Assembly (NCBI GenBank): GCA_030668875.1
Contig: DAOVER010000005.1
Coordinates: 1-32,000 of the forward strand
Origin: Candidatus Heimdallarchaeota archaeon
Lineage (GTDB): Archaea; Asgardarchaeota; Heimdallarchaeia; Heimdallarchaeales; Heimdallarchaeaceae
Direction of reading: 5' to 3'
Length of the DNA: 32,000 nt
Shown: positions 1,973-15,554 of the stretch, piece after piece
How the letters are laid out: every line of letters starts with the position of its first letter
Numbering within the stretch: the stretch's first letter is position 1
Program-made: the position numbers and the translations under genes
The notes under the pieces: model-generated
Seen by the model: the letters and a program-made list of their open reading frames with translations, nothing else
Told to the model about the DNA's origin: nothing
Database searches by the model: none

Positions 1973-3196
1973 TCAATTGCTACTTTCCTTTTTATAAACT
2001 ATATTTCCATTAATTAATGTAATTTGATTTTCCGCATAGAAGTTTTTTAACGGGTGTTCTGTCCAAATAACTAAGTCCGCATCTTTTCCTGGTTCAATGC
2101 TTCCTATCCTATCTGCAACCTTGAGCATTTTAGCAGCATTAATTGTTACAGCTTTTAGAGCTTCATTTTCAGGAAGACCTTCCTTTATAGCCATACAAGG
2201 TAAAATTTGGAAGTATCTAAGTCGAGTAAAAGAATCGCTTTGAATTGATATTTGGACTCCAGCTTTCCAAAGAATAGCTGGTGTTTCAAATGTTATATTA
2301 CGTAATTCGACCTTTTCAAAACCAACTAATGAAGGACCAACGGAAATAGGGATGCCCTTCTTTGCAATATAATCTGCAGCCTTGTGACCTTCAGTGGCAT
2401 GAACAAGCATGAGATCTAAATTGAACTCTTCTGCTAGATGTATGCCATTTATTATATCATTTAATTGGTGACAATGAAGGTTCAATGGTATTTCTCTGTT
2501 TAATACTTTTACTAGAGCTTCTTTACCAAGATCACGTTCTGGTTCAGATGGCATTTTTTCTATATCATTAGTTTCTTCTGTTTTTTCTTTCTTTTTCTCA
2601 TATTCCTGCCATTTTTTAGCATAATTTTGAGCATCTACAAATGCTTTGCGAAAAACAGCTGCTGTTCCCATTCTTGTTGATGGCAGTTTCTTATCTGAAC
2701 CATAAACATTTTTTGGATTTTCACCTAGAGCAGCTTTCATCGATGAAGGAGTTTTTACAATCAAATCATCGACAATATTACTTTTACAATAAGTTTTGAT
2801 GATAGTATCTGTACCTCCAATTACATTCCCACTTCCTGGACCTGTTTGAATTGTGGTAACACCACCTATTCTAGCTTCAACTAACCCAGGATCTTCTGGG
2901 TTTATAGCATCTAATGCTCTGACATATGCAGTTGCTGGATCAGTCATCTCATTTCCATCGAAACCTGCCCAACCAACTGAACCATCAAAGAGTCCTTGAT
3001 GGGTATGAGTGTCAATAAAACCCGGTAGAACAACTTTCCCTTCTGCATCTATTACTTCATATCCCTCTGGAATCGGTACTGTTCCATCTGTTATTGATTC
3101 TATTTTTCCATCTTTAATTAGGATGGTTCCATTTTCTATGATTTCTTCATTTTCATTAACTGTAATTATTTTACCTTTAGTAATAGCGAATTTCAT
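1973..3196 (-). CDS. Metal-dependent amidohydrolase (imidazolonepropionase-like superfamily)
   Basis: N-terminal beta domain, PGFIDTHTH (HxH), MKAALGENPK (Lys), LHCH, VHATEG, QSD, and the C-terminal GSIEPGKDADLVIW motif. Confidence 0.9.
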   Translation of the reverse strand: MKFAITKGKIITVNENEEIIENGTILIKDGKIESITDGTVPIPEGYEVIDAEGKVVLPGFIDTHTHQGLFDGSVGWAGFDGNEMTDPATAYVRALDAINPEDPGLVEARIGGVTTIQTGPGSGNVIGGTDTIIKTYCKSNIVDDLIVKTPSSMKAALGENPKNVYGSDKKLPSTRMGTAAVFRKAFVDAQNYAKKWQEYEKKKEKTEETNDIEKMPSEPERDLGKEALVKVLNREIPLNLHCHQLNDIINGIHLAEEFNLDLMLVHATEGHKAADYIAKKGIPISVGPSLVGFEKVELRNITFETPAILWKAGVQISIQSDSFTRLRYFQILPCMAIKEGLPENEALKAVTINAAKMLKVADRIGSIEPGKDADLVIWTEHPLKNFYAENQITLINGNIVYKKESSN

Positions 3197-14333: not shown

Positions 14334-14801
14334 TTATTCATTGCGTTTCCACATCATTTTCTCGCCTTGCTTTATCTGTGTTAAAATTCCAGCTTCATCC
14401 ATTTGTTTTAAGGATCTAGCAAATTCCTCTTTAGTAATCGGGGGATTCCCTTGTTTTAACGCTGCAAATTGGCAGGATGCAAATATTGCATCTTCAAACA
14501 TAAATTTAGAAGAGCTGAATGATTCAATAATCAAATCTTTATTAGGAATCTTAAAATCCTTAACAACTGTTTTAACTTTTTGAATCTCTCCCTTAGTAGA
14601 TCCAATTTTTGAAATAATTAAATCCGAAATAATGTCATTTAATCCTTTACCCTTTGTTTGTTCCCCAAAACCATGAAGTTCAGCTAACAAGAAAGTTGCT
14701 TGTTGAATGAATGATTCTATAGATTCAAAGTTATTTTCATCGACTAGTTTCTGTAAATAGTTGTACAAGCCTTCAGGGATTGTAATTTCAATAGGTTTCA
14801 T
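14334..14801 (-). CDS. Ribbon-helix-helix (CopG-like) plus C-terminal winged-helix-like protein
   Basis: IEITIPEGLYNYLQKLV...FESIESFIQQA fits RHH. C-terminal TKEEFARSLKQMDEAGIL..IKQG..MW fits wHTH. SD AGGAG. Confidence 0.65.
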   Translation of the reverse strand: MKPIEITIPEGLYNYLQKLVDENNFESIESFIQQATFLLAELHGFGEQTKGKGLNDIISDLIISKIGSTKGEIQKVKTVVKDFKIPNKDLIIESFSSSKFMFEDAIFASCQFAALKQGNPPITKEEFARSLKQMDEAGILTQIKQGEKMMWKRNE

Positions 14802-14954
14802 TAATATTACTCCTTTTTATAATTTTAAGATACATCTTTACAATTGGATTACTTCTTATAGGTTTTCTCTTAGATACGCACAAAGCAAAGTAAATTTTGT
14901 TAATATTCAGTGTGACAATTTGTTTAGTACTGTTTAAATGTAGTGAGAGATGAT

Positions 14955-15024
14955 GGCGTCCTTTTCCCGCTTTTATATCCTATGTGTGAAGCACATCTAA
15001 GCCGTCTCAATCAGTCATTCGCCT
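14955..15024 (-). ncRNA. Putative small RNA with two k-turns and box C/D-like geometry
   Basis: Minus-strand sequence: AGGCG-AAU-GA-CU-GAUUGAGACGGCU-UAGA-UGUG-CUUCA-CACA-UAG-GA-UA-UAAAAGCGGGAAA-AGGA-CGCC. Two k-turns, each with a 4-bp stem, 3-nt bulge, tandem G.A/A.G and two Watson-Crick pairs, separated by equal spacers. A TATA box sits about 30 nt upstream. Confidence 0.6.
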
Positions 15025-15048
15025 AATTACATTAAGGAAAAAACGAAG

Positions 15049-15060
15049 TATAAATTTTTC
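15049..15060 (-). promoter_or_regulatory. BRE/TATA box for the putative sRNA
   Basis: Minus strand GAAAAATTTATA. The first T (15054) is 30 nt upstream of A15024, the start of the closing stem. Confidence 0.55.
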
Positions 15061-15080
15061 TGTAAGGGTTTAATATTTTG

Positions 15081-15248
15081 TTAAGAAGCTTTACGACCAC
15101 GTTTATACTGTGTGAAACCACATTTTCCACAAGTTTGACGATCTTGATGTTCAGCCATATATACAGCATCTCCACATCTTTCGCATTCTTTCTTTAATCT
15201 AACTATCTTATCTCCTTCAGTTTTATACCTTTTATATGTTGAACTCAT
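15081..15248 (-). CDS. rps27ae: 30S ribosomal protein S27ae (eS31)
   Basis: Manual translation MSSTYKRYKTEGDKIVRLKKECERCGDAVYMAEHQDRQTCGKCGFTQYKRGRKAS* (55 aa, C4 zinc finger). It follows rps24e and is absent from the ORF track. Confidence 0.97.
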   Translation of the reverse strand: MSSTYKRYKTEGDKIVRLKKECERCGDAVYMAEHQDRQTCGKCGFTQYKRGRKAS

Positions 15249-15257
15249 TTCTTACAC

Positions 15258-15554
15258 TCACTTTGCTTTTTCTTGGATAATTCCAGATCTTTTTAAGAGA
15301 AACTCTTTTTCAACAGCGATAGCTCTTTCAGCTGTTTCATAAACATGAACAAGAGCTAAACTTTTTCCTTCTCCATATTTAGCTTCTAGTTTAATTAAAA
15401 CTACTTGATTTCTTTCTTTGTTTAATAGAGCAGCTAATTTTGACAAGAAATCATCACGTTTAGGAACTGGTTGTCCAATATGATCAACTTTAGCTTGTAT
15501 TTCTGTTCGCTCTAGTAATTTATTTTCATTTTTCTCAATGATATCAATCTTCAT
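15258..15554 (-). CDS. rps24e: 30S ribosomal protein S24e
   Basis: NKLLERTEI...P.R...LAALL...YGEGKS...VYE...E..L.R pattern and conserved gene context. Confidence 0.95.
   Translation of the reverse strand: MKIDIIEKNENKLLERTEIQAKVDHIGQPVPKRDDFLSKLAALLNKERNQVVLIKLEAKYGEGKSLALVHVYETAERAIAVEKEFLLKRSGIIQEKAK

Follow-up and report, generated by a model that had tools for sequence, protein, structure and literature searches.

The locus

The window analysed here is a stretch of 32,000 nt from contig DAOVER010000005.1 of a Candidatus Heimdallarchaeota archaeon, whose genome assembly measures 3.2 Mb in 99 contigs and is 92% complete. On its minus strand lies an element of 69 nt (15023-14955), bounded by a terminal stem and located downstream of the ribosomal-protein genes rps24e and rps27ae, which we call the sRNA element. 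A DNA search found it in a single copy in the genome. It had been described as unannotated in a first-pass annotation of the letters, and indeed no ORF, tRNA or Rfam family covers it; the Rfam search gave no match in the window at gathering thresholds and just three chance-level matches at E ≤ 10 on positions 14900-15100. DNA bearing this sRNA occurs in marine-sediment metagenomes. The next gene downstream (14334-14801, minus strand) encodes a protein of 155 amino acids, and in several relatives an ORF starting with MKTLEI follows the sRNA at a similar distance. The features of the locus, in the order in which they are met on the minus strand, are:

15258-15554, minus strand: rps24e, ORF; with rps27ae immediately upstream of the sRNA
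15081-15248, minus strand: rps27ae, ORF; the sRNA starts 57 nt after its stop
15049-15063, minus strand: promoter, a purine-rich BRE-like stretch and TATA box TTTATA (TATA at 15054-15049), recognised from the sequence
15023-15020, minus strand: 5' terminal stem GGCG, pairs with 14955-14958; invariant within the genus
15019-15017, minus strand: bulge AAU of the terminal k-turn, from the sequence
inside box C, minus strand: GA (sheared pairs) and then CU of the terminal k-turn, from the sequence
15018-15012, minus strand: variant box C, AUGACUG; GA kept in 26 of 26 sequences
15011-15000, minus strand: spacer 1, the D' guide, 12 nt, AUUGAGACGGCU; position 5 is C15004
14999-14996, minus strand: box D', UAGA; UAGA or UUGA in every homologue
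14995-14983, minus strand: internal hairpin UGUG-CUUCA-CACA, which closes the second k-turn
14982-14980, minus strand: bulge UAG of the second k-turn, from the sequence
14981-14975, minus strand: box C', AGGAUAU; AGGAUAG or AUGAUAG in relatives
14974-14963, minus strand: spacer 2, the D guide, 12 nt, AAAAGCGGGAAA; clade-specific
14962-14959, minus strand: variant box D, AGGA; AGGA in genera g1, g10 and g11, AUGA in g13
14958-14955, minus strand: 3' terminal stem CGCC, pairs with 15020-15023

Structure of the sRNA element

Two k-turns had been proposed by the first-pass annotation, and both are present exactly in the minus-strand sequence. In the terminal one, GGCG-AAU-GA-CU faces AG-GA-CGCC, so that the stem GGCG/CGCC and the bulge AAU are followed by tandem G.A and A.G pairs and then by the Watson-Crick pairs C-G and U-A. 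The second is built on the stem UGUG/CACA with the bulge UAG; the GA-UA of box C' (AGGAUAU) pairs back to the UA-GA of box D' (UAGA), which gives G.A, A.G, U-A and A-U. Compared with the consensus RUGAUGA, box C (AUGACUG) matches at positions 1-4 and differs at positions 5-7, whereas box D (AGGA) retains the GA of the consensus CUGA and differs at positions 1-2. The boxes read AUGACUG and AGGA because the U.U and G-C pairs of the usual motif are replaced by the Watson-Crick pairs C-G and U-A. Minimum free energy folding of the element was no better than that of shuffled sequences (z = -0.12), but such folding is uninformative here since k-turns rest on non-Watson-Crick pairs.

Both spacers had been counted as exactly 12 nt, and this holds for the genome analysed and its four closest relatives. 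Spacer 1 has 12 nt in 23 of the 24 genomes of the genus and 13-15 nt in genera g11 and g13; spacer 2 has 12 nt in these five genomes only, and elsewhere it is variable, with 9-11 nt.

Promoter and RNA cover

The TATA box that had been noted 30 nt upstream of AGGCG is the TTTATA at 15054-15049; it sits 30 nt before A15024 and predicts that transcription begins at about 15025-15023. The promoter motif AGAAAAAYTTWA is found at the same distance from the sRNA in all members of the genus, and in the distant genus g13 a box TTTATTAA occupies positions -29 to -22. Across the genus (loci L003-L025) AGAAAAAYTTWA is nearly invariant, whereas the 25 nt from the motif to the start of the sRNA are only about 52% identical. 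In searches for further small RNA genes of these archaea, the motif might be a useful handle.

The evidence on RNA cover comes from contigs that had been assembled out of public sequencing runs, in which stretches without cover are uninformative. One contig spanning a relative's copy of the sRNA was found in each of two metatranscriptomic runs, which belong to two studies; the depths were 34 and 2.7. Both contigs terminate 0-2 nt from the last base of the terminal stem, which weakly hints that a transcript ends there. On the 5' side they begin 81 and 134 nt ahead of the predicted start, beyond the predicted promoter, and they may represent read-through from rps27ae or DNA carry-over.

Distribution, conservation and covariation

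A covariance model was built from the genus sequences downstream of rps27ae, as the first-pass annotation had suggested. The model matches positions 14951-15027 of the window at E = 4.6e-23 and finds the sRNA in 28 of the 29 genomes of the GTDB family (genera g1, g10, g11 and g13), including a copy downstream of rps27ae in all 23 other species of the genus. Among the other genomes of the class none of 53 gave a match to the model. The sole miss within the family is genus g12 (G043), an 89%-complete assembly which also lacks the rps24e locus; since that locus is missing too, the miss is not evidence of absence. The position beside a ribosomal-protein operon, pointed out earlier for this genome, proved to be a lasting one: the order rps24e-rps27ae-sRNA is retained in all four sRNA-bearing genera.

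The first 32 nt of the element (terminal stem, box C, guide 1, box D' and internal stem) reach an identity of 98.7% within the genus, and the final 8 nt one of 100%, compared with 52% for the 25 nt upstream and 41% for the 30 nt downstream. Free variation, in length as well as in sequence, is seen in the hairpin loop and spacer 2. This is the conservation pattern of a guide RNA.

The first-pass annotation had made its reading depend on the conservation of the GA pairs and stems in related genomes. None of the four G.A pairs varies among the 26 sequences compared, and the stems show compensated changes. Inside the genus the stems never vary and hence are uninformative on pairing, so the changes come from the other genera. 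The terminal stem has G-C changed to A-U in g11 and g13. In the non-canonical stem of the terminal k-turn C-G becomes A-U in g13, where box C AUGAAUG goes together with box D AUGA: box C position 5 is C in our genome and A in g13, and its box D partner changes from G to U. Changes at box D positions 1-2 are matched by changes at box C positions 5-6. The internal stem has U-A changed to C-G in g11 and g13; the internal hairpin stem, invariant in the genus, is CGU/GCG in g11, and the internal motif of g13 has a short D'-C' loop instead of a hairpin, with C' AUGAUAG. The compensatory changes fall exactly where the k-turn model requires them, with a small count, as they stem from at most two lineages.

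Several pattern searches were run in addition. A loose two-k-turn descriptor gave 27 matches in the genome, where shuffled genomes gave 8-15, and by inspection the sRNA element alone among the 27 had G+C-rich stems. Paralogues in the own genome were considered and dropped, as the descriptor gave no other convincing candidate and the DNA search only the one copy. A strict scan of the genome for canonical C/D sRNAs returned two overlapping coding-like matches only. A scan for rRNA antisense stretches with loose boxes was noisy, because the expansion segments of the LSU rRNA are A+T-rich, yet it recovered the sRNA element as well as a canonical sRNA on contig C17 (see below). In a pattern scan of the whole collection the matches listed were mostly chance bacterial ones and Heimdall copies.

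Complementarity to 16S rRNA

The genome's own 16S and 23S rRNA genes gave no match to the Rfam models, and the 16S target was inferred from congeners because the own 16S gene is not assembled. On contig C9, positions of about 600-1100 hold many consecutive antisense 10-mer matches to the LSU rRNA of relatives (about 2590-3000), which suggests that the end of this contig holds a partial 23S gene, though the Rfam LSU search gave no match. The 23S genes of the genus (loci L032-L037) are 3382 to 4428 nt long, as compared to 2987 positions in the archaeal model; these congener genes carry large A+T-rich insertions whose size differs between species.

The core of the D' guide, UGAGACGGC, is invariant in all 28 homologues. 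Its counterpart GGCCGUCUCAAG occurs in all six congener 16S genes and in five from other genera of the family, and alignment to E. coli rrsA places it at 1057-1068, in the 5' strand of helix 34. Guide 1 positions 2-11, counted from box D', form ten consecutive Watson-Crick pairs with E. coli 1058-1067, with a G.U pair at position 1 and a mismatch at position 12. Guide position 5 (C15004) faces G1061 (N+5), numbered 1002 in the congener 16S. The pairing with 16S amounts to 9 pairs in g11 and g13. The published criterion is at least 9 consecutive pairs spanning N+5 (PMC4644070), and guide 1 reaches it, also in g11 and g13. The search of rRNA that had been asked for thus located the first predicted target in the 16S of every relative with a 16S gene: the expected string AGCC[G]UCUCAAU is found in helix 34 as GGCC[G]UCUCAAG, with ten Watson-Crick pairs and one G.U pair, and the two end positions are different from those predicted.

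Neither guide 1 nor its target varies, so no guide-target covariation is seen. Compared with the archaeal consensus GGCCGUCGUCAG, the target string is a variant specific to this family. In helix 34, around 16S positions 998-1009 of the relatives (loci L038-L043 and L197-L203), GUCUCAAG takes the place of the archaeal consensus GUCGUCAG throughout the family, with GUC changed to UCA at E. coli 1064-1066; this stretch of helix 34 beside the decoding site is normally very conserved and is unusually variable in this order. Sister families, which are without this sRNA, have GGCCCGUUCAAG or GGCCCGCUGCAG in their helix 34, and pattern searches for compensated guides to these two strings gave nothing above control. 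Human 18S Gm1447 was considered as a homologous site and ruled out, as G1447 lies in expansion segment ES9S of h39. Among tRNAs, the best runs of complementarity to the two guides were 7 and 6 nt, and no tRNA target was found for either.

Spacer 2 is an identical 12-mer in this genome and its four closest relatives. Its positions 4-12 form 9 consecutive pairs with CCCGCUUUU of 16S, in the 3' strand of helix 28 (E. coli 1382-1390), where C1383 lies opposite position 5 (N+5). The second target proposed in the first-pass annotation, UUUC[C]CGCUUUU, therefore exists in part: 9 pairs are made in helix 28 (GUCC[C]CGCUUUU), with a guide that is conserved in its own clade only. Spacer 2 of the other clades gave no run above chance against their own rRNA. 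A run of at least 10 pairs to 16S plus 23S was seen for about 1% of shuffled or random 12-mers (p about 0.01 for guide 1), and the 9-nt run of guide 2 had a shuffle p of about 0.02; these p-values are modest.

Proposed function and alternative explanations

The sRNA element is a genuine small RNA gene, strongly conserved in one family of Heimdallarchaeia. It is probably the RNA of a box C/D-type guide RNP that methylates G1061 in helix 34 of 16S rRNA, with a clade-specific second guide to helix 28. The protein machinery is encoded: the genes for fibrillarin and Nop5 are adjacent on contig C36 (PF01269, E = 7e-92; PF01798, E = 8e-63) and L7Ae is encoded on contig C58 (PF01248, E = 1e-26). By this reading the independently promoted gene would give a box C/D-type small RNA of about 69 nt, its presumed ends being those of the terminal stem. 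By analogy with archaeal C/D RNPs, L7Ae would bind both k-turns and Nop5-fibrillarin dimers would assemble on them. The spacer upstream of box D' would pair with the 5' strand of helix 34 (E. coli 1058-1067), so that G1061, opposite guide position 5, could enter the active site of fibrillarin and become 2'-O-methylated during assembly of the small subunit. In this genome and its four closest relatives spacer 2 may in addition pair with the 3' strand of helix 28 (N+5 = C1383), and the sRNA would then be a double guide directed at the head/neck region; elsewhere in the family the second guide arm is degenerate.

Two readings had been offered in the first-pass annotation, a divergent methylation guide and a new class of L7Ae-bound RNA. 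The former is favoured by the helix 34 pairing at N+5 in all relatives with a 16S gene. The latter is not needed, because sR44 of Methanopyrus kandleri shares the box pair (see below) and the boxes of the sister genus g13 (AUGAAUG/AUGA, with C' AUGAUAG) are nearer to canonical and approach the consensus. Rather than founding a new RNA class, the element represents the C/D k-turn in a rare, compensated form. In the eukaryotic C/D motif, stem II matters for the recruitment of Nop56/58 and fibrillarin. That box C positions 5-7 and box D positions 1-2 are off consensus counts against the guide reading, and so do the 13-15-nt spacer 1 of g11 and g13, which is off the 12-nt ruler, and spacer 2, which is unconserved family-wide. 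The missing guide-target covariation, the modest p-values, a 16S target taken from congeners and RNA contigs that may be read-through or DNA carry-over weigh on the same side.

Alternatively, the RNA might act as a non-methylating, L7Ae-bound antisense chaperone that holds the nascent strand of 16S helix 34 (and in the clade that of helix 28) open, its variant k-turns binding L7Ae with no active fibrillarin. The boxes retain only the L7Ae-critical G.A pairs and the 3-nt bulge, both targets are helix strands in the 16S 3' domain, the gene is linked to two small-subunit protein genes in all genera, and chaperone roles have been proposed for archaeal double-guide sRNAs (PMC4644070). We nevertheless consider this unlikely, as the guide register is exactly that of methylation, with positions 2-11 paired and a Watson-Crick pair at N+5, the same boxes occur in M. 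kandleri sR44 within an ordinary catalogue of C/D sRNAs, the boxes of g13 approach the consensus and the double-guide feature is confined to one clade. A more specialised version, in which an L7Ae RNP with U4-like k-turns, marked by the AAU bulge and a Watson-Crick stem II, and without active Nop5-fibrillarin is an antisense assembly factor co-expressed with rps24e and rps27ae and keeps the nascent helix 34 (and helix 28) strands open, seems quite unlikely to us. If true, it would represent a natural step by which a modification guide approached those C/D RNPs of eukaryotes that serve processing and do not methylate. The host lineage is described as the Asgard lineage nearest to eukaryotes.

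The location of the element also allows it to be read as a cis-acting 3'-UTR k-turn of the rps24e-rps27ae transcript, through which L7Ae or a protein of its family would control the stability or translation of the operon. It starts 57 nt after the rps27ae stop, a position conserved in all genera, and contigs from RNA libraries of relatives begin ahead of the predicted start and continue through the element; binding of L7Ae to mRNA k-turns in archaea has been reported (PMC5539422). The conserved BRE/TATA at a fixed distance, however, points to transcription of its own, and a cis element leaves unexplained both the invariant single-stranded 11-mer antisense to 16S and the C-D'-C'-D layout with its spacing of about 12 nt, which makes this reading very unlikely. 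Finally, GA dinucleotides and short stems could have come together by chance in a functionless intergenic spacer: thermodynamic folding is no better than for shuffled sequences, and loose two-k-turn descriptors match 8-15 times in shuffled genomes. Against this stand the near-perfect conservation across 23 species, with flanks only 41-52% identical, and the homologues with compensatory changes in three other genera, and for practical purposes the conservation data refute it, leaving it a negligible probability.

The methylation-guide reading, if correct, predicts a specific ribose methylation at the equivalent of G1061 in helix 34, beside the decoding site. The sRNA element adds an unannotated guide RNA conserved throughout the family to Heimdallarchaeia, whose RNA-guided modification systems are hardly described; no paper on Asgard C/D sRNAs was found in the literature collection searched. 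It also constitutes a natural experiment on the C/D motif, in which nothing but the bulge and the tandem G.A pairs stays constant, while the U.U/G-C part can be swapped for Watson-Crick pairs that are compensated on both strands and kept over family-level divergence.

Comparison with known C/D sRNAs and k-turns

The sRNA element shares with archaeal box C/D sRNAs (PMC4644070, PMC6009581) the order terminal stem, C, 12-nt guide, D', C', guide, D and stem, the tandem G.A pairs with a 3-nt bulge, the size of 60-70 nt with a promoter of its own, and at least 9 consecutive rRNA pairs spanning N+5 together with an encoded protein machinery. The boxes of the known sRNAs are RUGAUGA and CUGA, whereas those of the sRNA element are AUGACUG and AGGA, and their non-canonical stem has U.U and G-C where the sRNA element has C-G and U-A. 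Moreover, the usual internal K-loop is replaced by a full k-turn closed by a 4-bp hairpin, and only one of the guides is conserved family-wide. Because of non-canonical K-motifs, 3-11% of known sRNAs escape the model of Lui et al. 2018. Searches built on RUGAUGA/CUGA miss genes of the type found here.

A close counterpart is sR44 from Methanopyrus kandleri, listed with RNA-seq read counts by Dennis et al. 2015 (PMC4644070, Additional file 1). Parsing of the listed sequence gives CCC-GAU-GA-CU-G ... AG-GA-GGG, with the identical box pair AUGACUG ... AGGA and the same geometry, that is, a 3-nt bulge ending in U, G.A and A.G pairs and then C-G and U-A; the terminal stem has 3 bp. M. kandleri, however, is an unrelated hyperthermophilic euryarchaeon, the guides of sR44 are others, and its internal boxes are canonical (CUGA and GUGAUGA) with a 4-nt loop. 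The box variant is apparently not a conserved family trait there.

A second sRNA, canonical and likewise unannotated, is encoded in the same genome on contig C17 (16287-16342, minus strand, locus L209). Its boxes read AUGAUGA ... UUGA-hairpin ... CUGA and its terminal stem covaries. This sRNA is conserved in all five genera of the family, and its D' guide forms 10 pairs with the 530 loop of 16S (E. coli 528-537, N+5 = U531); for its conserved D guide no target was found. Both sRNAs have family-wide conservation, the D'-hairpin-C' layout with a covarying internal stem and a 16S target in common, whereas in the one on contig C17 the terminal boxes follow the consensus, RUGAUGA and CUGA, and the terminal stem is longer. 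As the contig C17 sRNA keeps canonical boxes, the box consensus of the lineage is not shifted and the sRNA element is an exception.

The 5' stem-loop of U4 snRNA contains a k-turn that is bound by Snu13/15.5K and then by Prp31. It resembles the terminal k-turn of the sRNA element in that the bulge AAU leads into G.A/A.G, with two Watson-Crick pairs continuing the non-canonical stem. U4 is without guides, second k-turn or D-type box, so the likeness is limited to the k-turn sequence and nothing suggests a spliceosomal role. Three features set the sRNA element apart from ordinary C/D sRNAs: its box variant is compensated and conserved family-wide, its internal k-turns are full, and the site that it is predicted to modify, next to the decoding centre, is new.
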